A stretch of 64,000 nt of DNA from Rickettsia typhi (GTDB lineage Bacteria > Pseudomonadota > Alphaproteobacteria > Rickettsiales > UBA1997), in assembly GCA_945862075.1 (NCBI GenBank), contig CAMAWV010000002.1, positions 6,872 to 70,871 of the forward strand, in the 5' to 3' direction. The notes below the pieces were generated by a model that was not told the DNA's origin, ran no database searches, and was given only the letters and a program-made list of their open reading frames with translations. This document shows, piece by piece, positions 5,901-44,480 of this stretch; position 1 is the first letter of the stretch; each line of letters opens with the position of its first letter. The translations under genes and the position numbers were made by a program.

Positions 5901-6977
5901 TTACACTAAAATTTTTTGCAAAACATTAAGTAAATATTGATTTTCTTGAGTATTGCCAATACTAATACGTAAGCAAGAATGTAAGTTATAAGAAGCCATA
6001 TCACGCACAATAATACCGTTTTCTAGTAGTTTTTCGTTTATTTCTTGAGCTTTTTGCTGGCTAAAAAAATCAACCAACACAAAATTTGCCACCGAAGGAT
6101 ACTGCACCACAGTTTTTAAATTAGTAAAAAATTGCTGAAATTTCTCTAGCCAATAACTATTATGATAAACCGATTCTTGTAAAAACTCAACATCTTGTAA
6201 CGAAGCAATTGCTGTTATTTGCCCAGCTCCATTTACATTAAAAGGCCCTCTTACTTTATGAAGCATTTCTGACACATATAAACTACTATAAGACCAACCA
6301 ATTCTTAAAGATGCTAAACCATAAATTTTTGAAAACGTTCTAGTAATGACTAAATTTTGATATTTTTCCACCAAATCAAAACCATGATAATAATTAGTAG
6401 CAGTTACAAACTCTTGGTAAGCATGATCAAGCACCACCAAAATATTACTTGGCACTTTACTTAAAAAACTTTCTAACTCTTGTTGTAAAACATAAGAACC
6501 AGTAGGGTTATTTGGGTTAGCAATAAAAATAATTTTTGTTTTACTAGAAATATTATTTAAAAAATTATCGAGATTAGTTTTTAAATTAGTTTCTAGCACT
6601 TTTCTTGGTTTTGCTCCAACTTTTTTTGCCGAAATTGGATACATCAAAAAACCATATTCACTATATAAAACTTCATCATCAATACTAGCAAAAGCAGTGG
6701 TTAATAAAGAAATAATCTCATCAGAACCTGCACCACAAACGATTTGCTTTTGGTTAATATTGTTTATTTCTGCCAAACAATTAGTTAAATCAAGACAACT
6801 ACCATCTGGGTAGCGAAAAAGTTTGTCGGCATGTTTTTTATAAACCTCAATAGCTTTTTTACTAGCACCTAAAGCATTTTCGTTTGAAGAAAGTTTAATT
6901 ACCTGCTGATGATTAGTTTTAGATTTTCCAGGAATATAACTAGGTATATCAAGTAAAAATTGATTAGCTTTTAACAT
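5901..6977 (-). CDS. hisC: Histidinol-phosphate aminotransferase
   Basis: LSSNENALG, YPDGSC, GAGSDEII, NPNNPTGS and TRTFSKIYGLASLRIGW (PLP-lysine motif) are present. Confidence 0.85.
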   Translation of the reverse strand: MLKANQFLLDIPSYIPGKSKTNHQQVIKLSSNENALGASKKAIEVYKKHADKLFRYPDGSCLDLTNCLAEINNINQKQIVCGAGSDEIISLLTTAFASIDDEVLYSEYGFLMYPISAKKVGAKPRKVLETNLKTNLDNFLNNISSKTKIIFIANPNNPTGSYVLQQELESFLSKVPSNILVVLDHAYQEFVTATNYYHGFDLVEKYQNLVITRTFSKIYGLASLRIGWSYSSLYVSEMLHKVRGPFNVNGAGQITAIASLQDVEFLQESVYHNSYWLEKFQQFFTNLKTVVQYPSVANFVLVDFFSQQKAQEINEKLLENGIIVRDMASYNLHSCLRISIGNTQENQYLLNVLQKILV

Positions 6978-29477: not shown

Positions 29478-32400
29478 ATGCTAATTTTAACCAAATATAA
29501 ACAAGCAATTATTAAGGTTCTTTCTAGTTTAACTAATTGTTTGTTTTTTATATGGTTACAAAAAATATTTAGCAGTAAAAGTAAAAAAATACTCCTATAT
29601 TTTATAGCTATTTTTGGCATTATTTCATTACTTTGGCAGTTTCATTTTAAAGCGGTTTTGTCTGATGCTAATCCTCCTTATAAAAACACTGCCCACCCTA
29701 GAAAAGATGCTTTCCCTACTCCTATTCTGCCTAGCTTTGATGCAACCACTGTTTTAGAATCTCCCTTGACCTCTGAAACAATAAATGTTGACAGGCTAGG
29801 TTATGCATTAACCAAGCTTTATTATCAAAATGGTGTCGATTACTTTCGTTGTGCAACAAACGATCTAACAAAAAACGATCTGCAATATTATTGTGATTCT
29901 TCTATAAACAAAGATGATTCTTTAAAAATCAAAGATAGTCAATGTGGCATTACTCCTATTTTTTGCACAGAAGAACAGGTTTTTAATTTTCAAGCTATAA
30001 AACGAGAGAGTTTTTATAAAAGATCACCAGGTGAAAAAATTATACGTTTAGTTAAAGAATATAAATCAGGTGATACTATTTTAACCGACTATCGTATTAG
30101 TTATTTACCGCCTTATGATCAATTTAATTTAGTGCCCACTGATAGTACTGGAGTGCTAAATGTATCTAGTGTTGGAAATCCTGCTATCAAAATTGACTCA
30201 GGATCAACATCTAGCCCATATACTAATTACAATGGTAAAGCAAGCAATTTACCTGCTTGCAAAGCTGGAGCTAGTTTGCAAGATATAGGCAATACTTGTA
30301 TGTTAAAAATTAAGATAGATGATATCAATAGAATAAAAATTAATGCAAAAGACTTTGATTTTGCAAAAACTGATGATTACTGTCATACCAAAACTAAAGA
30401 AGCTCCAGTTTTGGGTGAAAATTGTAGACTTCCTTCTTGTTTATCTATTTCAAAAGAATATTATCGCAGACCAGGTATCAATTGCTTGGCAGATTGCAAT
30501 GATGGTGCAGAGTTTAATGGTATTGATAATGCAAATTTGCGATTACCAGGTATAAATTGCTTGCCTGCTTGTGAAACTGGCTCAAAAAGTGTTTCTTATA
30601 CTAGTGATTATCAAAGTTTAGATCCATTTCTACCTAAAGATATTGGAGTTACTTGTTTTTTAAAGCATCAAGGTTATGTAATGCCAGTTTGCAACAGTAC
30701 ACCATTGGTAAATTCTCCCAATTCTAATTCTCAAAATATATCCGATGTAAAAAATACTATTATCGCTGCTAGTCCGAATGTTCCTAGAAAAGATTGTCTG
30801 AATGCCGCTGATTTACCTTTATGTGCTTTTTTCTCTTATGCTGATAGAGCAGGAGTGGCAAGTAAATTTGGTTGTTTGGGCATGGTAATGCAAAACACTG
30901 CTGGTGGTGCACCGTCATTTATTGATAATCAATATGTTTTAGGAGTTGACACAATCAATTTATCACTTCTACCTCAATACGATGAAGATCCTGGAGTTAC
31001 AGCAACACTTAAAAACATACCAATTATTGATTATACGCCAAGAAATTGTAATGATGCAACATTTACAATTGGATGTGGTAAGCCTTATACTTATTCTAAA
31101 TTAGCCCAAGCAGCTAGTAGTATTGCCTCTGGACTTTATCCTGCTAATGTTGATATGATACCGGTGCAAGATGCTAGTTATAATGATGCCTTAAATCACG
31201 ATAGCGTTAATGAAAATCATGCTAATTCTTTAAGAACGAATCCTTTTTATAACACTACAAGAACTAGTACAGCTTTTTCTGTGGGTAAAGATTCTTCTGG
31301 AGTTACAGTTAAATATAAAATTACAGAAACTCTCGATCCTTATTATAATGCAACTAATAAACCAAGTTGTTCGTTACTTACCAAGCAAGAACTTAAATTT
31401 ATTGGTACTAGAAATTGTGATTTAAACCAAATTTGGAGCGATTCTACAGGTGGAAAAAATAGTATACCCGATTTATCGTCTAGTTCTAGTAAAAATTTTT
31501 GTGAAGGTCAATATTTTTGTAAAGTTGATACTCGTTGTTCGATGTTTAGTGATGAGCAATTGCAAGAAGCGAAAGCATTTTTTCATTGTTTACCTGCTCA
31601 ATATAGTAAATATGAAGAGAGTAAAGTTGATATTAAATGTAATGTTTTAAATGATTTTGAAATTTTGGCTCTTACTAAAACTACTAAAACCACATCTGCA
31701 GTAGAACTTGATGAATTAAAAAATTATATTACTAATGCTTGTTTTAGAGGCAACTTGGCTTTTTTGATTCACAAGCGAATAGATCATAACATTGCAAATT
31801 CGACTATTCTTGCGAATACTGATAATGTTCCAGATTATAGCAAGATCAATAGTTCGATCTTTGATCCTAGTGTTGTTGTTGGCACCCTTCCTTCTCTTGC
31901 TTCGCAATGTAAGTATGTTGATAATGCTAGAGTAAATTATATGTTTCCTACTGGTAATCCTAGTGCGTGTGGTGCTAGCGTTACAGCGATAAGCTCTACA
32001 TCAGGCAGTTGTTTATCTGGTAAATTTGCTTGTTATCATTCTAGTCAATTTTCTTGTAATCTAGAGCATTATAAGACAGCTTGTTATTTATTGGCAAACT
32101 ATAAATTTCAAAATATTGATAGCTTTCTTAATGGCCAAACAACATCAATAAGCGATGATAAAATAGCACCTATATCGATTGGTTGCTCTGGAAGTGCTCC
32201 TGATAATAAAAAATGTGTAGTTAAATATGGATTAGATAATTTAGGTATGCTTAATTGTTTTAGCGATTATGCTAATTTTACTAATACAAGTACTGATGGC
32301 AAATTTGATGCTGATCGATTTGCCACAATTAGTAAATGCGATGCAAATCCTCTTTTATTAACTCTTTTTGTGCCAAATGCCAAAAAAACAATTGTTTATG

Positions 32401-35400
32401 CCGATACTACACCTTTAAGCCAAAGGCTTATAAACGATAATAAAGTTGATTGTCCTGATTGTTATTGTGTTTCAATTGATGGTTCTGCACTATCAAAAAC
32501 TAAATATCTAATTAGCGGAGGTTCCGATATTGATTTTTCTTTATCTCCTGATGCACGTTCTGATTCGATAGTTCCTATCTGCGGAGCTCCTAATTCTAAT
32601 TGTTATATATGTTATAAACCAAATTTTTATGCTGGTTTATTTAAAAAATCAACTCCCTCCTCTCCTTATTATCCTGTTATCGAACATGAAATAACCCGGT
32701 TAATTGGCGTAATGCAAGAAGGTGCTTCACAAGAAACGACAAGTAATATGGGTTATTATCAATACGAAGATCCTTTTTATAGCTGGTTCTTTTTTCCAAA
32801 GCCAAATACATCAGGCTCAGATGCGATACAAACGGTAAGAGATTGTGGAGATAGTAAAAAATGTTATAAGGCTTTTACTGTTGATTTTCCGAATAGTCGT
32901 GGTAGTACAGATGTTAATAGTCCTGGCTTTCTAAATTATTCAACTAATAAAGCTGAATATCTAGATTTTTTTCAATATCCGCCAATTTATTATTATGGTA
33001 ATGGTAGTTATGGTGATGATGGTGAAAAAGAAAAATATAATCTAGTCTCAAGTGAAGAGGGATTAAATTATGGTGTGCCCAATAGAGTTGGTTTGCACTC
33101 TATTAACAAAATTTCTTCTCCTAGTGCCACAGCTTTAAGAGGTGCTGATACGATGGGGGTCAATCCTTATGGCAATTATACATATACCTCTTCATTTGAT
33201 AGAGAATGGTTATGCGGAATGAATCGTGATCCGGGCGGATTGCCAGATGAAGATACTTTTGCTTATTTTGCTCCTGTTTTAGTGCAAGGGGGCAGATTCG
33301 GTTTACAAACAAACAATGTGCAGGGCGATCGGAGAAGATTTGCTTTTTCTGATACAAAATGGAATAGTGTCACAAAAAAACTTGAGTATTATGTTAATAT
33401 TTGTTTGCGATACGAATCGGCAATGGCGGTTGGGGCTTGTGGTAGAAGAGAGTGTCGAATAGATAATAAACCAGGTATGATGCATTGCGGTGAAGATCAA
33501 TGTCGTAAATTTATCGTTGAAGCCCCAGATGATGGGGTTTATAGCAAGTGTCATTTGTTAGCGAAGACGGCTATGGCAGATATTGATGGCAAACCACAAT
33601 CGCATTGGTTTGTTAATAACTTGCAAGAATCATTATCTTCTGAAAGCGATCCTCTTCGGATCGATAAATTTCTTGATGACGATGGATTGCCTACTGACTA
33701 TGAAAAATGCGCAAAGCTTTATAGTGCCCCCACTTTAGAACTTGGTAAAAGACTTGGTAAAGGTGCGGGTGCGGCATTCCTTACTGCTGCTACTTTTGGT
33801 CTTGGAGTTGGAGTTAGTGCTTTTGTAGCGACAGTTTGGGATTATACTAATCATCGAGTGAGAGCTTTTTATGACAAAGGTGGTTATGTATGTGCCGAGC
33901 TTGATTTTTATGGTATGGATTTGAATGCATATAATGCAAATAAAAATGACTTGAAGGATTATTCGTTTTTTGAATTGCCAGATGGAGAAGGAAAAATTTG
34001 TTATGGAGGTAGAGTTGTTAATAATAACAAAGAATGTGATTTTGTAAATGGTGGTTTTAATACTTTTGCCGATCTTAATTCAGGTATTGGTGGCTTGCCC
34101 GGTGCTCCAGATCCTACGGTTTGGAGAGCGGTGAGAAAGGTTAAATTTATCAGTAATATTTCTAATGATCCAAATATTGAATTTTTAGGTTATAGTGTTC
34201 CAGAGGTTGCCGATCAGTCTACTCAATATGCTTACAGAACAGATACAAATGTGCATAATCTTTTTCCTGCCAAAATGAAGGCACAAGATGGTCTAATTAC
34301 TATGGTATACAATCATGCTACTAGAATGAGAACAATAGAAAGAATCGATTCTTCGTTATCTGAAACTGCTATTTTTAGATCACATCAAAATGACCGAGAT
34401 ACAGCAGCAGAACAATCGCCTGATTTAACATATGGTTTGTTGCAAATGTCAAGAGGTAAAAAAAATCCTTATTACGGATTTAACGGCTATAGTGATGATA
34501 ACGATCCCACTTGGAAGTGGCTTAGCACTTCGTTTCCAGATGATTATTCTTTATGTAGTATCTTTGGATTTATTCCAGTACCTATCAATGGTTTATGTGC
34601 TAGTATTTCTATACCATATGTGTCAACAGTTGCACAAGATATTACAAAACAAAGAGAGGACGGAACTGGAGATGGATCTCGTGTAGCAACCTCGACATTG
34701 TATAAAACAGCATTTCAGCCAAATAACTTTTTAAAAGAAAAAGTATGGTTCAAATCAGATTGTGTGCCAGTGCAGAAAAGAGTAGGTTTTCCATTGCTTT
34801 CTGCTGTTGCTACTCCAGATAATGCACCTAATTTATTTGCGCCAGAACCTATGGTTTTCGCTTTAAAAACAACATCCGTTACTAATTCATGGAAAAAAAT
34901 CACTGAAATTAACGATATGGATAAATTAAATTTTTCTGATCCAGAAATTGTTTTAAAATATGGCAACAAATATTACTATATACAAGTTCCTAAAAAACAT
35001 GCTTCTTTAACAAAGTGTAATACCACTAATAATAAAATATTTGATAACACTGGCGATGCAAGATTAAAATTTATTTTAAAAGAAATACCTAGCGTCGCTA
35101 ATGATAATGATCTTTTAGACAAATTAAATAATAATCAAGTTAATTCATCAAAGAATGAGGTATCAACAACATCAACAACAAAATTTGAAGACGATATACC
35201 GTCTTTTAAAGAGCATCATAACCCTAATTTTCAAGACAGTACAGATTCCGATTCCATACCTAATAAATGCGGGAATAGTAGTAGACCGTATGGAGTTGTT
35301 ATTGCTTCGAATCTTAAGCAAATAACTAGCGCCGTTCCTGCTGTTTCTAATAATACTATGTTATATGCTCAAATTGTGGCTAAAAAAGAACATCAAGGCA

Positions 35401-38400
35401 ATCAACCAGTTTTATGTGTGTATAGAGCTCTTATGAATGGTGATAATCCTGCCGCAGCAGAAGATAGTGATTTAAAAATTATTGCTTGTTTTCCAAGACA
35501 ACAGCCATTGGTTAATAATATGAGACTTGTTAAAACTCCACTTTCTGATGTTAATAATGATTTTTTAAATCATGAAGTGAGTTTTGAATATAAATATTCT
35601 GATGTTTCTACTGCTTATGATCGTATTGCCAATATGTTTAAAATTATTACCCCATCTGTTCCTGGCAATCTTAATAATGCGAATAAATATCAATTAAAAG
35701 ACAAATTATATGATTTATTTATTGCTAAAAATACAGGTTTTATAGAAGATGGTATTTATTTTGAAGGTATAAAAATATCTTCTGTAAGGCATTACTGCAC
35801 AGCTCTTAATCTAGATTGCATTGATAATGAACGAGAAATTCAAAAAATTTGCAACAATGAAGATCTTATATGTAACCGATCAATGGTGAAAACAAATGAA
35901 GATCTTGAAAAATTAAACCGAGATCTTAATCATGAGAATTATGATGCTTTTAATAAAAATGTAGCCAAATATTCCATTAGAGAATCTTTAATTGTAAAGT
36001 TACGAGTCAGAAACTTTTGTACAACAGATTTACTGAATTCTTGTAATCTGATTAATGGTTATACTTCTGACGATATTAAAAAATTTCCAGCAATTCAAAC
36101 CCTAAATCCACAATGGAATAATAGAACTACAACACTACCGAGTGATATTTCTGATTCTGCAAAAAATACTTTGGGTTTTAAAAATATGGTGTGTTTAAAA
36201 AAAGGTGTGGAAAATTTAATTAATCAATCGCCACAATTTGTTGTGCAAACAAAAAATGGGCTTCCTGATAATGTAAAAGGCAAAAAAGCAACTTCAGATA
36301 ATTATCAAATTTGTCCAGAGTCGCTTCCTAGTATTTCTTATCGTTTTGCAGAAATATATGAATATAAACAAGGTAATGTTTTAAATAATATTATAACTGG
36401 TGGCAATGATTTATGTGTTGGAATTGGAGGAGGAACAATTAATGTTCCTAAGTTGGTTGATTTTTGTGAGGCAGAATTATATCCTTTAAAAAATTTAAAG
36501 TATGTAAATTTTAAAGAAAATTTTCTAAGAAAAGAAGATTTAATTACTCAAGGCAATGTTATATATAAAAGCCTGATAGCCAAAAACTACACTCCTCCTG
36601 CTTCTAGTTATTTTTATTCTGATGAAAATGATTTAGGAGAGTTTGGAGTTGATAAATCTCACAATAATAGAAATAATGGCAAAATTATTAATAGTAATAC
36701 AAGAACCGCTCATGCTGAAGTAGATGTTTCTTTCGCGGGAGATGATGGGATGTATGGAATTTGCAATGGTTTTTGGAAAAATAAAGATATAATTGATGCA
36801 CCAAGATATCGCTGTGATTCTGCTACTACTTTGGTGTTGTCGCGTTCTCCTAGTTCTGATACTTGCACACGTTATTCTTGCCCTGCTATCCAATATGGAA
36901 ACCCAATTTCTAGTTCACTATCTGATGGCTATAATAATCAAGCAAATAAAAATGGTTTATATACTTTTTATAGCGGTAATTATGTTATCGGTTTGGATGT
37001 TATGAAAAAAAGAGGCTGGGCTTCTTGGAAATCTTTTACAAAAACAAATGATTTTATAGAAGATGTTGAAGGTAATGTTGGTAATAAAAGTGCTTGTGTA
37101 GTTGGTTTTGCAAAAGATCGCTCTAGTTTAGATGTTGGTTTGTTCGATTCTAATTCTTGTGCCGTAGCTCAAGATAGTAATCCTGGTACTGCAAAGATGC
37201 TTACAGCTATTTGTCCAAACTCATCTGTCGGAGATGGCAATGTTTATAACAATGTGGGCGATTTACCTTCTACTCAATGTAATCAATTTGGTTATTGGCG
37301 ATTTGATTGGACGAGTGAAGAATTTCTAACAAGATATGACGGAGGTATTTTTTCTATGAGTAGTGGCAAAACAGTACTCGACAGTTGCCAAAGAATTGAG
37401 TGTTCTGTTACTGATTTAGAAAGTAAATTTTTCGACACTACACCAAACCCCAAAACACCAATTCGTTTAATTAAACAGAGATGTCGCGATAGTTTGCCTG
37501 GCTCACCAGTGGTAATTATTGCCGAGCTAAATACCCAAATTCCAAGTTTCGTTGTTAATAAGTATTATTATTTAAAAACCAATAATTTAACAAATTGTAA
37601 CAATGCTACCCAAGTACATATAATTAAAAAAGGTACATCATATGATGCAACTGATGGCAAAACTTATGATCAGATCGATATTGCTTCAATTCCGTCAAAT
37701 GCAAGAGATTTTAATACCTCTAGCACTAATCCAGTTACTGCTTGGTATTTTAAAGTAATACAACCATCTTTAGATTTTGCAATTGACACTTTGCGCTTTG
37801 AGGTAACCACAAAGAACAACAAAAATACAGTAGAACACGAAAAACTTTTAAAAGTATGGAGTAAAATAGCTGGTTTTCAACCGCAGAGCGATAGCAGAAC
37901 TTCAATTCCTGCAATGCGAAACAAAACAATAGAACATGATAAAATTGGTGGCGAAAAAATCTCTAAAATCTCTGCAAATTTAGATGATGATGATTATGAT
38001 ACCGAAGGCAAATGTTTAATTTCTTTAGGATACAGAATAATTGCTACAGGCTTTAATCCAAAATTGTTGTGTAACTATCAAGGTATATTAAAAATTAAAG
38101 TGCCTTGTATTTCTACTTGTGATGCTGTTGATAATTCTATGGCTGATACTGAAATACATGGTTATTCGCTATGGGCTGAAACCGAAAATAAAATTAAAGT
38201 TTGTGGTGATAGATGTAGCCCCGTTACTACTAAAATTCCTTTTTCTTATATTGGCAAATCAACCCCTCAATGTTTGACTGGCAAAAAGCCATACCCATAT
38301 CCGCCTTTCCGTAGCCTAGAAGGTGTTAAATTTGAATTTATGAATAATCCTATTGTATCAGTGCAGGCTAGATACCATTCTTCTTCTACTAAAAGCAAAG

Positions 38401-41400
38401 ATATTTATGATGCAACTGCCTGCTCTTCTGCCTTGAATGGATGCATAGTTGAATTTGATAAAACAAATATTACAGAAAATGTATTTTTAAAAGAATCTAA
38501 TACAGAGGTTGCTTTATATAAAAAAGATTCTCTTGGTGGTAAAGAAAAATTTGCTTCTTATGATATCTTGCCAAATGTTAAATATAAAATAAATCAAGAA
38601 TCATCAGATTACTTTGTGACTTTGGTGCAATCAATAAAATTGACAGATGATAATCGTTGGCAAGAATATAATATAAATAAAAGAAAAATTTTTAAAGTAG
38701 CAGATTGTTCGATAAGTGCAAATAGTATTAATTGTCAATGCGGAAGCGGTTCCCATCCAGCTTGCCCTTTTGATAATGTTTTTGATAAAATTTCTGAAGG
38801 TGAGGTGGTAGAAATTAATTTAGCTTCTAGTAGCTCTCCTGTAAGTCTAAAATTTCAACAAAATACAAGTTATACAAATAATATCGATATTGAGACGATA
38901 TCCACCGCTAGCAGTCATTTTGTGCTACAATTAAAAAAAGATCTTTCTGGTAATTTGCAATGGAAACAACTTGTTGGCTCTTATCTTGGTTTAGAGAGGC
39001 TAGCAAATACTACTTCTGTTTCTATGGCAACTTGTACTCAACTAATTGATTCTGCTGTTGGCTTGGCTTCAAGTGATTACAATTGTAATTTAAACCTTAA
39101 TACATTAGCTGATCCTCCTGTTGTTTTAAGAAATAATCAAGAAATCAAAATTAATTTTCCATCTACAGTCCTTACTGGTGGTAATCCTTCTGATAACTAT
39201 ATTATTAATTATAATTCAAAACCAGTTAAAAAATATAACAGTCAAGGTAATTTGATTACCAATTTTAATCATCAAGAGCTATTTGGTGACTATATTTTAA
39301 GAGCGGTTGATGAGCCAAGTAATGGTGTTGGCATTGATTATTATTTATTAATCAATGCCACTGATTTTGCTTCAGCTCCTGCAAATAATAATTATCCACT
39401 TCCAAATCGAACTTGTCGCTATGGTATTGGCAATGTATGGAGTTTGCCAGATTCTGCTTGTCAAAATACTTGCCCTGGTTTAACACAAACTGTGCCTAGT
39501 AGTGGAGATGTTGAGGCAATTATTACTAATAATAACTTTGATTCTAGAATTGGCTCGGCAATAACCGAGCACACAATTAGTACAAGCGGTTTGAGTGGGT
39601 TGAGTTTAGGATATTTAAGTGTTCATAATAGTGGTGTTGCAATTCAAAATAGAGACAAAATCGCAGTAAAAGTTGTTGATATAACAGCTAACCAAGCTAC
39701 TTTGCATGTTATTTGGCCAGCATTATCTCATCAGCATGATGTTACTTTAATTCTTCAAAAAGATAGTAATACTTACAAAATTATACAAACTAATCCAATA
39801 GGAACTGGACCATTAGAGCCATCTCTCTCTGCTCTGCACTATGAAAGAGATGGTGTTAAAGATTCTATTATTTTATATCGTAGGTGTGGTGCAGATGGCA
39901 AATGGCAAGATCCAATTTCGCTTTGTCCAATTGCAGGCCCAGCAAAAGGTGGGCATAGTTCTCTTAACTCAATTTTAGGTTTTGTTAGTGCCAGCAATAT
40001 TGAGCCAGGTAATGAGTATACCCCAACAATTGCAAGTATTAGAAGCAACACTAGTTTTGATTTTAATCCTGGTTTTGACACCGGTGTATTAAAACAAAAG
40101 GCATTACAAAATATGGATAGTATTAGTGCGGTTTTTTATAGATTATTCAAAGTTGCTTCTGGCGATAATATTGCTCAAATTCCAGTAATACCAGATTATC
40201 GTATTATTGGCAATTCTCTAAATCAATTTGGTGTTTCAAATAATGGGAATGGGGTACCTTTAGGCATGAATCCACATAATATTTATGCTTATGCAATGTG
40301 TAATTATAATTATAGTAATAATAGCTCAAATCCAGATTATTACAATTTTTATAATCAAGATTTTGGCAGCGCGCTTAACAATGGTTGGGGAACAAATGCA
40401 AAATATCAATGCCAGTCTGCTACAGATAACCATTTAAATACCTATAAAATTGCTACTTCTTCTGGCACTTCTGCTTGTACACAAAAATGCAATGCTGGCA
40501 TTATTCATAGAGTTGGTAGAGATACGAATTTACAACTAGGTGGCAATATTGATGAAAATTTTACAGGAGCTGCTACAGGAGCTGGGTCTACAACTACTAA
40601 TTACTCTAAGATTGAGGTTTCAAAGACTTATTTTGCTGATAATTCTTATTCAAAATATAACCTTATAAACACTGGCGATCATTATAATTTTTATTCAGGC
40701 AATAGTGGGATTGGAGGAGATCCAGACAAAATTAGATTATTTGAAATATTTGGTTCCATCACTCCTAGAAATTGTAAAGATATGTCAAATAGTGAATCTG
40801 GTAGATGTAATTTATTTGAAAAAACCTCACAATCTTCAACTGATGGTCTTGTTGATGTTGTTTTGGAATCTCAATGCAATAATGAATCTGGAATTACAAT
40901 TAATCCTAGCATTTCTATCAATAAGGATGATGGTTTGGGCACTTATGGTTATATCGGGGAACATCCAGTTAAAGTCTCTAAATATTGTTGGGGTTTAAAA
41001 AAAACACAAAGTGCAGATATTTTATTGCCTTATGCATCATGTAGATCTAATGGTCAATTTTCTTTAGCAAATCCTTTTCAAGGCAAAAAACAAGATGAAT
41101 CTACAAGATTTAAATTTTGGAAAGATGTTCATGGAGGGGAAAGTATATCGGAATATATAATTAACAATGGTATTGTTCGTGAAATATTGTTGCAATATGG
41201 TGATATAGCAATGCGAAGAGGTGATACGTGTGGTTTGGATAGGTGGAGAAGAAGATGTAACAGTTCGGTTGTTTTGTTAAAAAATGGTGCAGTGAATTAT
41301 GATAGTGAGAGAAGGTTGCCAGAATTTGAATATAGCAAAATAGTAGATGAGGACATGTGTGGTTGCTGGGACGGAGTTATAAATTGGTCTATCCACTACA

Positions 41401-44400
41401 ATTTTGGCAGAAGGTACGTTGCTGATAAGATGAGTCCTTGGTATGATGCAAGTGTTACTGGAACAAGCCAATACTACGCCGGTTGGACTAAAGATAACAA
41501 CTATCATATAGCTAAAAAAATAGATATAACAGGCGATATGTTTAATATATTATGTAGTACAATCCCATCCGACAAAAGACCACCAGATAATAGTTGTGTT
41601 GGTTTTAAGTGTCCTAGTGCTTTTTGTAAAAATAATTATGACTCAGGATTTGTTATTCGTGAAATGTCCGGGGACGATAAGCATTACCTTGCCTTGAGTG
41701 AAGGTGTTAGAAGTTTGAAAATAATTATGTGGGGTTGTCCTACTGGTTATAATATAAGTTACGATTATCATGCTAATAGATGCATAGCATCTAGCTCTAC
41801 TTTTATCCCATCTAATTTTTATCCTAGTAGTATTGCTAGTGTTCGATGTTCTAGTTATAGTCTTTCTAGCAACAATATGTATGATCCAAGTAGTCCACCT
41901 GATTCTGCTATCACTCTTTATAATGGTCAGGTAAAAAATATGGCTTGCAAATTTGGTTATGAGGCTTATCAAATTAGCTCAACAGTTCTAGCATCGCCTG
42001 CAACCCCTAAAACATTATCTTGCAGTGTTCCTTCTGGATCAACATCGGCACCACCAGCTACTGCTAATTTTGAATGTAGGGCAAAACAATGTATTGCAGC
42101 AGATATTGCAGCTTTTTGTACAGCTGAGAAAATAAATAATTGCCCTTTAACTATCTCATTAACATCACCAACTACTAATCTTCAATGCATATCTCCTCCT
42201 GGTCGATTTGCCAATAATTTGATATGTATCAATGGTAAACCTAGTTATGATCGGGATTTTCGTATTGATAACTTATGTGGTCAATTTTGTACTTATACAT
42301 CACAAAATGCTGGTAAAGACGGTGTTACTTTCTTAACATCAGCATCAGGAAGTGGCGAATTGATAAGATATGATGAAAAATCTCTGTTCGTCTGTAAGAC
42401 CGGCTTTACACGTCAATATAATTCTGTTGGTCCTGATATAATACAAATTAATTGCAGAGCTGGCAATCTTGTTTACGACGATGCTCGTTGTATTTCTAAT
42501 AACTATTGCAGTTTAAATTCAGCTCCTGATATAAATTTTGCTAGTACTAATTGCAATCAGCCAGGTATTTTTTGCAAGAAAGTTGATGGCGCTACAACTG
42601 AAATATTAATTTCGCAAAATCAAAGTGTTAATGTTTCTTGTGGCGGTAGTACTGTTGGCACCAAAACCTATAATTGCACTAGTGGTAGTAGTACAGGCGG
42701 TACTGCAACTACTTCTGACACTTGTTCTCCTATCACTTGCACTGTTCCTTCTGCATTTTCTACTGCTAATATTATTTATACAACAGCTTCCGGATCTTCT
42801 CCATTAACTTCTTCAACAACTCTTGGTTATAGAGATTCTAGTGGTGGTTTAAATTGTGCTACTGGCTATACTAATTCTGCTGATTTAGGTTATACTTGCA
42901 CTACAAGTGGCATTGCAACAATGACTGGCCGTTGTTATCGTCAATGTATTGTTGACAGTGGGGTGATAACAAGTAATAGGGCATATACAAAACGATCTTC
43001 TTCAATAATTTATCTTAATCATAATTCTGTCTCGAATGCTAATATAGTTTGTAGCAGTGGCTATAGCGGAACTGCAGGTTATGCTTGTAATGATGGCACT
43101 CTTGCCTTTAATGGATGTAGTGTTAATAGTTGCACTATACCAAGTGATTCTCATATTAATATATCTGCTAATCAATTATCCTCAACTGAATCTCCAATTG
43201 GTCATGACACAACACTTTATTGCATACAAGGCTATACTTCTGTTTATAGTGCAGGATCTGCATCTTTAATGGCAGATTGCACTGGTGCATCAGGTGCTGT
43301 TGCTGGTGGTAGTTGTATAAAAAATTGTGACACTCTTCCCAATAGCGATTATGCTACCAAAAGAGGTGTTTATAACGATAAAGCCACTTGCAATGATGGT
43401 TATGGAGGAATAATCAGTCCTCAAAACAGAATCTGCCAAGCAAATGGCGCTTGGAGTGGAGCTTGCAATATTAACAATTGTGACACTCTTGCCAATAGCG
43501 ATTATGCTACCAAAATCGGTGTTTATAACGATCGAGCCATTTGTAAGGGTAGCTCAGGCTATGGATCTAGCACTCCTGGATATCATCTAGTTTGCCGAGC
43601 AAATGGCACTTGGAGTGCAACTTGTGTAACAAACTTATGTAATGTAAATCGTGGAGTTATTGGATACAATTATATAACAACTGATAACCCACCCGCAGTT
43701 CCTTATGGAGGAAATCGAGCAGGAGATCCTAATACAGGAAGTGGTTCTTATTTATTTAGTTCTGATTATATAAAATGTGCTGATGGTTATAGTAGCGGGC
43801 AAGGATCAGATGGTAAATCTGCTGTTTATCAATGCAATAATAAAAACTCAGATGGTACAAGAATCAATATCGACCCTATATGGTGTGCCCCAGAAAATTG
43901 TTCTTTTACTTATAGTAAATATGTAGGGGATCAATCCTCGCCAACATCTACAACTATAACCATTAATCACGGAACAACTGCTACCGCAGACAACTATAAT
44001 TGCGAATATAAACAACAAAATACAGAACCTCTTTCTTCAACCAATCCAGATGCAGTTCTTCTAAATCATAAAGGAAATATGAAACTTTCTTGTTCATTTG
44101 GAGTAGTTTCCAAGAATTCTTACTGCCCTGCTTCTACAACAATGACAGGATCAGAGAGTTCTGGCCAACAAGTTCTTACTATTAATGACCTAGGTAGCGA
44201 CAGAACAATAAGATCTTATGCTAGATATTATAAAGGAGTTGAGTATGGTTCGGGAGAATCAAAAGATGTAACATATCAAGTGGGCTGGTGTCAATTTGCC
44301 AACAGATGGGAGGTTCCTGCTTGTTATCTTAATACTTGGTGTAGAGTATGTGCAAAGAATGAGTGGTGGGGCGATGATCCTGCAAGAACATTCTGGAAAA

Positions 44401-44480
44401 AAATAGACTGGGTTTTATTATACTGCCCAAACACTAAATTCAATGGATCAAGACACGATTATGGATTATGTGATTATTGA
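29478..44480 (+). CDS. Giant (5000 aa) membrane-anchored, cysteine-rich surface or secreted protein with Sushi/CCP-like modules
   Basis: A single 15,003-nt open frame in AT-rich DNA; the longest alternative-frame ORF listed inside it is 109 aa. N-terminal hydrophobic anchor (LLYFIAIFGIISLLWQF). Cys residues recur along the whole length, often as C-x2-5-C linkers. By eye I see no RTX, autotransporter, Rhs/YD or NRPS motifs. Confidence 0.85.
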   Translation: MLILTKYKQAIIKVLSSLTNCLFFIWLQKIFSSKSKKILLYFIAIFGIISLLWQFHFKAVLSDANPPYKNTAHPRKDAFPTPILPSFDATTVLESPLTSETINVDRLGYALTKLYYQNGVDYFRCATNDLTKNDLQYYCDSSINKDDSLKIKDSQCGITPIFCTEEQVFNFQAIKRESFYKRSPGEKIIRLVKEYKSGDTILTDYRISYLPPYDQFNLVPTDSTGVLNVSSVGNPAIKIDSGSTSSPYTNYNGKASNLPACKAGASLQDIGNTCMLKIKIDDINRIKINAKDFDFAKTDDYCHTKTKEAPVLGENCRLPSCLSISKEYYRRPGINCLADCNDGAEFNGIDNANLRLPGINCLPACETGSKSVSYTSDYQSLDPFLPKDIGVTCFLKHQGYVMPVCNSTPLVNSPNSNSQNISDVKNTIIAASPNVPRKDCLNAADLPLCAFFSYADRAGVASKFGCLGMVMQNTAGGAPSFIDNQYVLGVDTINLSLLPQYDEDPGVTATLKNIPIIDYTPRNCNDATFTIGCGKPYTYSKLAQAASSIASGLYPANVDMIPVQDASYNDALNHDSVNENHANSLRTNPFYNTTRTSTAFSVGKDSSGVTVKYKITETLDPYYNATNKPSCSLLTKQELKFIGTRNCDLNQIWSDSTGGKNSIPDLSSSSSKNFCEGQYFCKVDTRCSMFSDEQLQEAKAFFHCLPAQYSKYEESKVDIKCNVLNDFEILALTKTTKTTSAVELDELKNYITNACFRGNLAFLIHKRIDHNIANSTILANTDNVPDYSKINSSIFDPSVVVGTLPSLASQCKYVDNARVNYMFPTGNPSACGASVTAISSTSGSCLSGKFACYHSSQFSCNLEHYKTACYLLANYKFQNIDSFLNGQTTSISDDKIAPISIGCSGSAPDNKKCVVKYGLDNLGMLNCFSDYANFTNTSTDGKFDADRFATISKCDANPLLLTLFVPNAKKTIVYADTTPLSQRLINDNKVDCPDCYCVSIDGSALSKTKYLISGGSDIDFSLSPDARSDSIVPICGAPNSNCYICYKPNFYAGLFKKSTPSSPYYPVIEHEITRLIGVMQEGASQETTSNMGYYQYEDPFYSWFFFPKPNTSGSDAIQTVRDCGDSKKCYKAFTVDFPNSRGSTDVNSPGFLNYSTNKAEYLDFFQYPPIYYYGNGSYGDDGEKEKYNLVSSEEGLNYGVPNRVGLHSINKISSPSATALRGADTMGVNPYGNYTYTSSFDREWLCGMNRDPGGLPDEDTFAYFAPVLVQGGRFGLQTNNVQGDRRRFAFSDTKWNSVTKKLEYYVNICLRYESAMAVGACGRRECRIDNKPGMMHCGEDQCRKFIVEAPDDGVYSKCHLLAKTAMADIDGKPQSHWFVNNLQESLSSESDPLRIDKFLDDDGLPTDYEKCAKLYSAPTLELGKRLGKGAGAAFLTAATFGLGVGVSAFVATVWDYTNHRVRAFYDKGGYVCAELDFYGMDLNAYNANKNDLKDYSFFELPDGEGKICYGGRVVNNNKECDFVNGGFNTFADLNSGIGGLPGAPDPTVWRAVRKVKFISNISNDPNIEFLGYSVPEVADQSTQYAYRTDTNVHNLFPAKMKAQDGLITMVYNHATRMRTIERIDSSLSETAIFRSHQNDRDTAAEQSPDLTYGLLQMSRGKKNPYYGFNGYSDDNDPTWKWLSTSFPDDYSLCSIFGFIPVPINGLCASISIPYVSTVAQDITKQREDGTGDGSRVATSTLYKTAFQPNNFLKEKVWFKSDCVPVQKRVGFPLLSAVATPDNAPNLFAPEPMVFALKTTSVTNSWKKITEINDMDKLNFSDPEIVLKYGNKYYYIQVPKKHASLTKCNTTNNKIFDNTGDARLKFILKEIPSVANDNDLLDKLNNNQVNSSKNEVSTTSTTKFEDDIPSFKEHHNPNFQDSTDSDSIPNKCGNSSRPYGVVIASNLKQITSAVPAVSNNTMLYAQIVAKKEHQGNQPVLCVYRALMNGDNPAAAEDSDLKIIACFPRQQPLVNNMRLVKTPLSDVNNDFLNHEVSFEYKYSDVSTAYDRIANMFKIITPSVPGNLNNANKYQLKDKLYDLFIAKNTGFIEDGIYFEGIKISSVRHYCTALNLDCIDNEREIQKICNNEDLICNRSMVKTNEDLEKLNRDLNHENYDAFNKNVAKYSIRESLIVKLRVRNFCTTDLLNSCNLINGYTSDDIKKFPAIQTLNPQWNNRTTTLPSDISDSAKNTLGFKNMVCLKKGVENLINQSPQFVVQTKNGLPDNVKGKKATSDNYQICPESLPSISYRFAEIYEYKQGNVLNNIITGGNDLCVGIGGGTINVPKLVDFCEAELYPLKNLKYVNFKENFLRKEDLITQGNVIYKSLIAKNYTPPASSYFYSDENDLGEFGVDKSHNNRNNGKIINSNTRTAHAEVDVSFAGDDGMYGICNGFWKNKDIIDAPRYRCDSATTLVLSRSPSSDTCTRYSCPAIQYGNPISSSLSDGYNNQANKNGLYTFYSGNYVIGLDVMKKRGWASWKSFTKTNDFIEDVEGNVGNKSACVVGFAKDRSSLDVGLFDSNSCAVAQDSNPGTAKMLTAICPNSSVGDGNVYNNVGDLPSTQCNQFGYWRFDWTSEEFLTRYDGGIFSMSSGKTVLDSCQRIECSVTDLESKFFDTTPNPKTPIRLIKQRCRDSLPGSPVVIIAELNTQIPSFVVNKYYYLKTNNLTNCNNATQVHIIKKGTSYDATDGKTYDQIDIASIPSNARDFNTSSTNPVTAWYFKVIQPSLDFAIDTLRFEVTTKNNKNTVEHEKLLKVWSKIAGFQPQSDSRTSIPAMRNKTIEHDKIGGEKISKISANLDDDDYDTEGKCLISLGYRIIATGFNPKLLCNYQGILKIKVPCISTCDAVDNSMADTEIHGYSLWAETENKIKVCGDRCSPVTTKIPFSYIGKSTPQCLTGKKPYPYPPFRSLEGVKFEFMNNPIVSVQARYHSSSTKSKDIYDATACSSALNGCIVEFDKTNITENVFLKESNTEVALYKKDSLGGKEKFASYDILPNVKYKINQESSDYFVTLVQSIKLTDDNRWQEYNINKRKIFKVADCSISANSINCQCGSGSHPACPFDNVFDKISEGEVVEINLASSSSPVSLKFQQNTSYTNNIDIETISTASSHFVLQLKKDLSGNLQWKQLVGSYLGLERLANTTSVSMATCTQLIDSAVGLASSDYNCNLNLNTLADPPVVLRNNQEIKINFPSTVLTGGNPSDNYIINYNSKPVKKYNSQGNLITNFNHQELFGDYILRAVDEPSNGVGIDYYLLINATDFASAPANNNYPLPNRTCRYGIGNVWSLPDSACQNTCPGLTQTVPSSGDVEAIITNNNFDSRIGSAITEHTISTSGLSGLSLGYLSVHNSGVAIQNRDKIAVKVVDITANQATLHVIWPALSHQHDVTLILQKDSNTYKIIQTNPIGTGPLEPSLSALHYERDGVKDSIILYRRCGADGKWQDPISLCPIAGPAKGGHSSLNSILGFVSASNIEPGNEYTPTIASIRSNTSFDFNPGFDTGVLKQKALQNMDSISAVFYRLFKVASGDNIAQIPVIPDYRIIGNSLNQFGVSNNGNGVPLGMNPHNIYAYAMCNYNYSNNSSNPDYYNFYNQDFGSALNNGWGTNAKYQCQSATDNHLNTYKIATSSGTSACTQKCNAGIIHRVGRDTNLQLGGNIDENFTGAATGAGSTTTNYSKIEVSKTYFADNSYSKYNLINTGDHYNFYSGNSGIGGDPDKIRLFEIFGSITPRNCKDMSNSESGRCNLFEKTSQSSTDGLVDVVLESQCNNESGITINPSISINKDDGLGTYGYIGEHPVKVSKYCWGLKKTQSADILLPYASCRSNGQFSLANPFQGKKQDESTRFKFWKDVHGGESISEYIINNGIVREILLQYGDIAMRRGDTCGLDRWRRRCNSSVVLLKNGAVNYDSERRLPEFEYSKIVDEDMCGCWDGVINWSIHYNFGRRYVADKMSPWYDASVTGTSQYYAGWTKDNNYHIAKKIDITGDMFNILCSTIPSDKRPPDNSCVGFKCPSAFCKNNYDSGFVIREMSGDDKHYLALSEGVRSLKIIMWGCPTGYNISYDYHANRCIASSSTFIPSNFYPSSIASVRCSSYSLSSNNMYDPSSPPDSAITLYNGQVKNMACKFGYEAYQISSTVLASPATPKTLSCSVPSGSTSAPPATANFECRAKQCIAADIAAFCTAEKINNCPLTISLTSPTTNLQCISPPGRFANNLICINGKPSYDRDFRIDNLCGQFCTYTSQNAGKDGVTFLTSASGSGELIRYDEKSLFVCKTGFTRQYNSVGPDIIQINCRAGNLVYDDARCISNNYCSLNSAPDINFASTNCNQPGIFCKKVDGATTEILISQNQSVNVSCGGSTVGTKTYNCTSGSSTGGTATTSDTCSPITCTVPSAFSTANIIYTTASGSSPLTSSTTLGYRDSSGGLNCATGYTNSADLGYTCTTSGIATMTGRCYRQCIVDSGVITSNRAYTKRSSSIIYLNHNSVSNANIVCSSGYSGTAGYACNDGTLAFNGCSVNSCTIPSDSHINISANQLSSTESPIGHDTTLYCIQGYTSVYSAGSASLMADCTGASGAVAGGSCIKNCDTLPNSDYATKRGVYNDKATCNDGYGGIISPQNRICQANGAWSGACNINNCDTLANSDYATKIGVYNDRAICKGSSGYGSSTPGYHLVCRANGTWSATCVTNLCNVNRGVIGYNYITTDNPPAVPYGGNRAGDPNTGSGSYLFSSDYIKCADGYSSGQGSDGKSAVYQCNNKNSDGTRINIDPIWCAPENCSFTYSKYVGDQSSPTSTTITINHGTTATADNYNCEYKQQNTEPLSSTNPDAVLLNHKGNMKLSCSFGVVSKNSYCPASTTMTGSESSGQQVLTINDLGSDRTIRSYARYYKGVEYGSGESKDVTYQVGWCQFANRWEVPACYLNTWCRVCAKNEWWGDDPARTFWKKIDWVLLYCPNTKFNGSRHDYGLCDY
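43323..43639 (+). repeat. Tandem duplication of one four-cysteine module inside the giant gene (period about 153 bp)
   Basis: aattgtgacactcttCccaatagcgattatgctaccaaaAGAggtgtttataacgat at 43323 recurs at 43476 with only 4 substitutions. gcaaatggcGcttggagtgGaGcttg recurs as gcaaatggcActtggagtgCaActtg. Protein: CDTLPNSDYATKRGVYNDKATC... versus CDTLANSDYATKIGVYNDRAIC... Confidence 0.8.

Follow-up and report, generated by a model that had tools for sequence, protein, structure and literature searches.

Tandem arrays of Sushi domains, also called complement control protein (CCP) or SCR modules, build up proteins such as CR2, DAF/CD55, factor H, C4BP and vaccinia VCP. Sushi is predominantly a metazoan domain, and its annotation in bacteria is not unheard of (Pfam/InterPro species distributions); the literature was searched for such domains in bacteria and in Rickettsiales, with no directly relevant result. 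Here we describe a cysteine-rich array of modules at the C-terminal end of a giant protein encoded within a 64,000-nucleotide stretch of DNA from an alphaproteobacterial assembly deposited as Rickettsia typhi (GCA_945862075.1, contig CAMAWV010000002.1, forward-strand positions 6,872–70,871). This whole stretch is referred to as the window, and nucleotide positions without a further label are positions within it. The protein of 5000 amino acids (aa) was read from the list of open reading frames (ORFs) and their translations (29478–44480, plus strand), and contains 180 cysteines (3.6%), the density of which peaks in the final 1000 residues. Judged from sequence, the modules of the array are probably very divergent, Sushi/CCP-like remote homologues, a reading to which we give a probability of about three in four. 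A fuller description, in which the last ~880 residues would form ~9–11 disulfide-stabilised, Sushi/CCP-related beta modules followed by a SUEL-like end and would act as the stalk of an exported giant adhesin, is also favoured, with somewhat less assurance.

Results

Ten back-to-back cysteine-bounded modules

Residues 4205–4883 of the giant protein are laid out as ten back-to-back modules (M1–M10), each bounded by cysteines and joined to the next by a linker of 3–5 residues, and an eleventh four-cysteine module, M(-1), lies directly upstream of M1 (aa 4124–4200). These results bear out a preliminary description of the array, made from the sequence alone, in its coordinates (42074–44125, where 42074 corresponds to C4200 of 'CRAKQC' and 44125 to C4883 of 'SYC'), in its count of at least eight consecutive tandem four-cysteine modules and in the nine linkers that it quoted, all of which are found in the sequence. 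Some of its dimensions had to be revised: the modules are in tandem and the linkers short, as proposed, with module lengths of 47–83 aa in place of 50–70 aa and with linkers one residue longer at both ends of the range than the 2–4 residues given; four cysteines per module holds for eight of the ten, M1 and M3 having six. Across modules, the spacing between successive cysteines is 20–45, 11–29 and 9–16 residues.

A regular expression for the array ('C-x15-50-C-x8-30-C-x7-20-C-x2-5-C') matched nine times in aa 4124–4883 and not once in the remaining 4123 aa of the protein, compared with a mean of 0.54 and a maximum of 4 matches in 5000 shuffles of aa 4124–4883. The motif 'C-x2-G-[YF]', which had been described as following Cys2 throughout, occurs seven times in the same region (7/11 modules, with M1 and M10 among those that lack it; shuffle mean 0.34, maximum 4), and elsewhere in the giant protein at two sites, one of which, at aa 4087, is immediately upstream of the array. 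Chance or low complexity is excluded by the shuffles as the source of the array pattern. The G-x-W motif between Cys3 and Cys4, by contrast with its earlier description as a feature of the array, is restricted to M7 and M8, plus an isolated site at aa 3470, and with the conserved tryptophan in only two of ten modules the layout is not the 'textbook' Sushi/CCP layout that had been claimed. Isolated module copies proposed further upstream (near aa 2700, 3300 and 3470) likewise found no support, with no Pfam match and negative scores against a profile of the module family.

The modules, all encoded on the plus strand, differ in how closely they follow the family pattern. The highest family-profile scores were those of M5 (aa 4490–4547, 42945–43118; CSSGY; 27.8 bits), M4 (aa 4421–4486, 42738–42935; CATGY; 25.6 bits) and M9, the long form of 83 aa (aa 4721–4803, 43638–43886; CADGY; 23.0 bits), and a profile built from relatives only gave 20.9 bits for M5 and 20.3 bits for M4. 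M2 (aa 4271–4338, 42288–42491; CKTGF after Cys2) matched the full model at 9.8 bits, followed by weak matches for M(-1) (41847–42077; CKFGY after Cys2; 7.3 bits) and for M3 (aa 4344–4416, 42507–42725; 5.5 bits), in which a four-cysteine core spans aa 4366–4416. M6 (aa 4552–4613, 43131–43316; CIQGY) is the module with a confident AlphaFold fold, and M7 (aa 4617–4663, 43326–43466; CNDGY, G-A-W; 47 aa) and M8 (aa 4668–4716, 43479–43625; G-T-W) are short forms. Two modules are atypical: M1 (aa 4205–4267, 42090–42278), which had no family-profile match, and M10 (aa 4808–4883, 43899–44126), whose family-profile scores were negative.

Motifs of the CGADGKWQDPISLC type (~39885–39926, aa 3470–3483) resemble the closing Cys3-G-x-W-Cys4 segment of CCP modules. 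They close domains of ~170 aa that have neither Cys1 nor Cys2 at CCP spacing and no Pfam or family-profile match.

Resemblance to Sushi/CCP modules

When the C-terminal 867 aa were compared with Pfam, a single family was matched, Sushi (PF00084), over two stretches and with E 3e-4 and 21.6 bits, a narrow pass relative to a cutoff of 20.7 bits. Searched alone, M6 aligned to Sushi model positions 1–36 (E 0.054) and M7 to positions 27–52 (E 0.004, 17.8–18.0 bits, the best of the single modules), such that the two modules divide the model between them, M6 falling in its N-terminal and M7 in its C-terminal half.

With the C-terminal 831 aa as the query, an exhaustive phmmer search of 1.84 billion representatives found only 12 relatives, 11 of which look bacterial. 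These 11 are uncharacterised proteins from metagenomes or metagenome-assembled genomes (MAGs) labelled Rickettsiales, Proteobacteria or, in one case, Chitinophagia, with at least one relative originating from a freshwater metagenome. A word-indexed protein search, using the 867-aa C-terminus, M7–M9 or the family module alignment, returned no matches, although this search misses the family even when its relatives sit in the same collection, and its negatives do not equate to absence. From the window protein and the 11 bacterial relatives, a set of 64 four-cysteine modules was assembled. In their alignment the four cysteine columns are invariant and C-x2-G-Y/F is the consensus. Searched singly against Pfam at E≤0.1, 6/64 modules matched Sushi (best E 0.004), while every other family was matched once.

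The profile of the 64 modules was then compared with 177,635 PDB sequences, yielding 35 matches at E≤1, the best of which was CR2 at 2.3e-8. Judged from their names and general knowledge, we take all 35 of these matches (35/35) to be CCP/Sushi-containing proteins; they include CR1-related protein, DAF, C4BP, CR1, beta2-GPI and Crry, as well as FHR1/2, CD46, vaccinia VCP and B5, and C1s. No other single result argues as strongly for Sushi homology as this specificity for CCP proteins. A profile of nine modules from the window alone ranked a CCP module of C1r first (E 0.034), followed by a mixture of proteins, mostly antibody heavy-chain variable domains together with further CCP proteins. A six-frame scan of the window with the relatives-only profile recognised M4–M9 and nothing else.

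The cysteines of the array are kept in relatives far above the background identity. In an ortholog on the metagenomic contig L004, 27/28 cysteines align to cysteines at an overall identity of 44%; the equivalent figures are 20/21 at 44% for the relative P0005 and 7/7 at 57% for P0010. M(-1) is conserved in both the L004 ortholog and P0005.

The one remaining phmmer relative, P0006 (34% identity), is the sole bona fide Sushi protein among the 12. It is 1446 aa long and contains 25 near-identical Sushi repeats (Pfam Sushi E 1.8e-190, 618 bits), and is encoded at L006 6001–10341 on a 2.2-Mb metagenome contig with 40% GC and sparse, short ORF calls that is probably eukaryotic. The phmmer alignment with P0006 is in register over M3–M6, M4 included, with all cysteines and linkers lining up, and the cysteine spacing of M5 (34/11/9) is near that of the P0006 repeats (26/13/10). 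Each aligned stretch contributes 11–21 bits. The overall E (2.8e-26) is a sum over 13 copies of a near-identical repeat, in effect one weak match counted 13 times, and so makes the evidence look stronger than it is.

Predicted structure of the modules

Single-sequence AlphaFold prediction for aa 4560–4762 gave a predicted local distance difference test score (pLDDT) of 29.7. M6–M7 were modelled from a 28-row alignment of natural two-module family segments, from which bona fide Sushi sequences were deliberately excluded, and the resulting model had a mean pLDDT of 69.5. Within M6, block means of pLDDT were 87–93 for model residues 21–60 and 51–73 for residues 1–20. The M6 model is all-beta, with strands that end at Cys2, follow GY, precede Cys3, follow Cys3 and sit at Cys4, and the strand order predicted by this model is the CCP strand order. 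When the model was compared with PDB using Foldseek, CCP proteins (DAF, factor H 19–20, CD46, C4BP, FHR1 and IL-2R alpha) made up roughly two thirds of the 24 highest-ranking matches, aligned over about 61 columns at a root-mean-square deviation of 4.4–4.5 Å.

Homology, convergence or acquisition

A number of results weigh against Sushi homology. Pfam returned no match when the whole 5000-aa protein was the query, and every single module, including the six of 64 in which Sushi was recognised, fell under the 20.7-bit domain cutoff. The conserved tryptophan is missing from 8/10 modules of the array, most modules of the wider family also lack G-x-W, and the PDB profile matches concentrate on the Cys2-GY-Cys3 segment. 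Three relatives with 8–16 modules each (P0003, P0004 and P0007) had no Sushi match at E≤1, and when the family modules were aligned by hhalign to the repeats of P0006, which are low in diversity, the probability was 39% over 27 columns. In the structural comparisons, M7, whose sequence comes closest to Sushi, was modelled poorly (pLDDT about 46–61), no Foldseek match in PDB was significant (every E ≥0.73) and the viral library yielded nothing meaningful. Together with the tiny size of the family and its confinement to a few bacterial metagenome bins, the shortfall in Pfam, hhalign and Foldseek scores and the missing tryptophan are what would be expected of a four-cysteine beta module specific to one bacterial lineage, which had converged on CCP spacing and on C-x2-GY without being homologous to Sushi, and which might nonetheless act as an adhesin repeat or extracellular spacer. 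We consider such convergence unlikely. Against it stand the CCP-only character of the 35 PDB matches, as judged above, and an alignment with P0006 that stays in register over whole modules and their linkers. CCP proteins also share with the array its four-cysteine spacing, its linkers of 3–5 residues and its tandem layout, and the predicted strand positions fit the CCP fold.

A second possibility is that these are eukaryotic Sushi repeats taken from a host, mimicking host ligands or regulators of the complement or receptor type. The metazoan bias of the domain, the location of the nearest bona fide Sushi array (P0006) on a eukaryotic-looking contig and the typically host-associated lifestyle of the Rickettsiales lineage would all be in keeping with this. 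However, GC content at third codon positions (GC3) is 0.178 in the array versus 0.184 in the rest of the gene, and the slightly higher total GC of the array comes from second codon positions, reflecting amino-acid composition. Because array GC3 equals that of the remaining gene, there is no compositional trace of a recent eukaryote-to-bacterium transfer, and recent horizontal gene transfer from a eukaryote receives no support from GC3. Furthermore, identity to P0006 is low and the gain in its E-value comes from summing near-identical repeats, the exhaustive phmmer search yielded no other eukaryotic Sushi protein, and relatives come from freshwater metagenomes, where the likely partners would be protists or algae, which presumably lack complement. 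Acquisition from a host is therefore improbable in our estimation, complement-type mimicry is unlikely where the partners are microeukaryotic, and the sequence data somewhat disfavour eukaryote-derived host-ligand mimicry in general, although mimicry of a different Sushi-binding system is conceivable.

Membership of another known cysteine-rich extracellular family (EGF-like, HYR, GCC2_GCC3 or fibronectin type I) is very improbable and effectively refuted, since a 9-residue JAG1-like EGF2 match on M7 (E 0.52) and the appearance of fibronectin F1 and of the cysteine-rich domain of EphA2 among the lower Foldseek matches are set against the lack of any Pfam match to such families, either with the 64 modules as queries (E≤0.1) or with the 867-aa region (E≤10), and against their absence from the PDB profile matches.

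The Sushi/CCP identity put forward in the preliminary description is thus supported in part, as probable remote homology, at a level where no single module reaches the Pfam cutoff. Of the checks that it had suggested, the search with PF00084 gave a marginal match for the C-terminal 867 aa and none for the entire protein, the comparison with EGF, HYR and GCC2_GCC3 leaves Sushi as the sole known family that the modules resemble, and structure prediction placed CCP-like strands in an all-beta M6, with a poor model for M7 and non-significant Foldseek matches.

Gain, loss and exchange of modules

Array length varies between orthologs. The L004 ortholog (L004 1–1509, from the MAG Rickettsiales CE-Jul18-19) stops right after its equivalent of M3, the next gene being priA, on the opposite strand, so that at least seven modules of the window array, and the tail behind them, have no counterpart in L004. 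P0002 has an M6-like module directly behind M3, as read from the sequence with boundaries taken from the module parse. Identities of 60% at the aa level and 77% at the DNA level mark M7 and M8 as recent duplicates of each other.

A blastn search also identified a cassette of 359 nt, comprising the second half of M8 and all of M9 (43535–43892, plus strand), with 91.9% DNA identity to L007 1922–2279. This contig is from a freshwater metagenome, and the gene that contains the match, of LamG-plus-module type, is otherwise different from the giant gene. The flanks of the cassette are 76% identical or unalignable, and its right breakpoint falls at the M9/M10 linker. At the sequence level, this high identity points to cassette exchange or gene conversion. 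Taken together, the length differences between orthologs, the M7/M8 duplication and the shared cassette indicate that modules have been gained, lost and exchanged, as is common in surface proteins under diversifying pressure.

A lectin-like C-terminal tail

The array is followed by a Trp/Cys-rich tail of 117 aa (aa 4884–5000, 44127–44477, plus strand), which is SUEL/rhamnose-binding-lectin-like and carries a 'GDDP...K...YC' motif. Homologous tails end P0004, P0009, P0010 and the L007 gene; of the five tails including that of the window protein, the latter diverges furthest, and some of its cysteines have been lost. Profiles of four or five tails matched the L-rhamnose-binding lectin 5h4s in PDB (E 6.6e-5 and 2.9e-5), where the match corresponds to a '(F/C)GDP...K...V.Y.C' motif present in each of its three domains. 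The second of three PDB matches in all was the rhamnose-binding lectin CSL3 (E 0.14). Single tails had no Pfam match, Gal_Lectin included. We assign the tail, with moderate confidence and from these profile matches, to a SUEL/rhamnose-binding-lectin-like domain.

Architecture of the relatives

Weak, sub-threshold Laminin_G_3 matches lie ahead of the arrays in P0001, P0004 and P0008. P0003 and P0004, of about 2000 aa, start with lipoprotein-type signals (LLVLCACDNRKG), as read from their N-terminal sequences. In P0004 (L008 8001–14162), the weak sub-threshold Laminin_G_3 region is followed by 7–8 modules and then by a lectin-like tail, and the neighbours of the gene are housekeeping genes. In L007 (2285–2742), the P0001 gene ends at 'CAPN' right behind an M9-like module, and past this point the reading goes on in another frame into a short module and a lectin-like tail. 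The break after 'CAPN' represents either a frameshift (an assembly error or a pseudogene) or two separate genes.

The giant gene and its locus

The giant ORF is flanked by ordinary chromosomal genes. Upstream of it are genes for a peptidyl-prolyl isomerase and murD. Downstream, on the opposite strand, are a metallophosphoesterase gene and nuoI/nuoH, with ffh, bamB, valS, ilvC and glmU further on. The window is AT-rich (GC 26–39%). The placement of the giant gene after murD is seen on four independent metagenome assemblies, and the nearest genomic relatives of the C-terminal region belong to two assemblies labelled 'MAG: Rickettsiales bacterium'. These data support the idea that the gene is real and comes from an uncultured Rickettsiales-like alphaproteobacterium.

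Near the N-terminus, a hydrophobic segment (aa 35–53, 29580–29636, plus strand; Kyte-Doolittle mean of 1.74 over 19 residues) follows a Lys/Ser-rich stretch, and is likely, to judge by its composition, to be a Sec signal or signal anchor. Over aa 1–4123 (29478–41846), scans of the whole protein and of overlapping 800-aa pieces gave no Pfam match, and phmmer gave no PDB sequence match for the first ~4100 aa. A Gly/Ala-rich hydrophobic segment, AAFLTAATFGLGVGVSAFV, is located mid-protein (aa 1432–1450, ~33771–33827) and has a faint match to the DUF2157 membrane-protein family. This segment could be a second membrane segment or a fusion-peptide-like element.

Discussion

A candidate attachment stalk

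The array is most likely, on its sequence features, to function as an extended extracellular adhesin stalk. That the protein is exported, that its cysteines pair as disulfides, that the array takes the shape of a stalk and mediates adhesion, and which host it may have, are all inferred. An extracytoplasmic location fits the cysteine content of 3.6%, with cysteines conserved in orthologs, the N-terminal hydrophobic segment, and the lipoprotein-type signals and LamG-like regions that are apparent in the sequences of relatives; the hydrophobic segment at aa 1432–1450 speaks against so simple an arrangement, in that it could complicate the topology. In the mechanism that we propose, the giant protein would be exported via Sec by its N-terminal hydrophobic signal, and oxidation of the modules would follow, either in the periplasm or extracellularly. 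Joined by linkers of 3–5 residues, the array would then form an extended, semi-rigid and protease-resistant stalk, which would hold the lectin-like tip and the variable surfaces of the modules away from the cell. The tip and module surfaces might bind glycans or proteins of another cell, most plausibly those of a microeukaryotic host, and the array would evolve through the gain, loss and exchange of modules.

Freshwater Rickettsiales include lineages that have been observed as epibionts of microeukaryotes (bioRxiv 10.1101/2023.01.31.526412). This makes a microeukaryotic partner plausible, and nothing ties the genome studied here to a host. A broader reading, which we regard as rather doubtful, is that the modules represent an old, bacterially evolving CCP-like lineage within a small clade of freshwater Rickettsiales, where they would be combined with LamG-like and rhamnose-binding-lectin-like domains in giant or lipoprotein adhesins, with cassettes shuffled from gene to gene, to build a variable attachment organelle suited to epibiotic or parasitic life on microeukaryotes. 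If this were true, the Sushi fold would have a deep non-metazoan history, and the array would not be a recent host-derived mimic.

If the assignment to Sushi/CCP is correct, the array represents a very divergent, Pfam-invisible bacterial branch of the family, in a host-associated order and in a 5000-aa protein that is otherwise unannotated. Provided that it holds, an extracellular stalk with a lectin-like tip would be the first functional handle on the giant protein and its relatives, and would hint at a possible mode of attachment to eukaryotic cells for these Rickettsiales. The locus also illustrates, in a specific example, how a surface protein can recombine at the level of its modules. The array alone is no proof of host mimicry or of recent gene transfer from a eukaryote.

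Comparison with known systems

The window protein resembles the Sushi/CCP/SCR arrays of CR2, DAF/CD55, factor H, C4BP and vaccinia VCP in its modules of ~50–80 aa, in their Cys1–Cys4 bounds and CCP-like spacing, in C-x2-G-Y/F after Cys2, in linkers of 3–5 residues and in the long tandem arrangement. It differs from them in that its modules mostly lack a proline after Cys1, have a tryptophan between Cys3 and Cys4 in only 2/10 cases and are unusually variable in length (47–83 aa), with an extra cysteine pair in two modules. Unlike those of the described arrays, most copies in the window family are invisible to the Pfam model, and they are found in a bacterial host for which a complement-type partner is implausible. 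Linkers of the 'C-x-x-Q-C' type are common to P0006 and to the window array, whereas the repeats of P0006 are uniform (spacing 26/13/10/3) and its genomic context is eukaryotic-looking.

Among the bacterial relatives, P0001, P0003, P0004 and P0007–P0012, from freshwater MAGs labelled Rickettsiales or 'Proteobacteria', have the module types of the window protein at 37–57% identity, with matching linkers, and a SUEL-like C-terminal tail is common to the window protein, P0004, P0009, P0010 and L007. These relatives are much shorter and have other N-terminal parts, in place of which the window protein has ~4100 aa without assignment. With the SUEL/rhamnose-binding lectins (5h4s and CSL3, 2zx0), the tail family has in common the motif '(F/C)-G-D-P-x3-(C)-x-K-x3-V-x-Y-C' and an upstream 'Y-G', although, in contrast to those lectins, single tails of the window family have no Pfam Gal_Lectin match.

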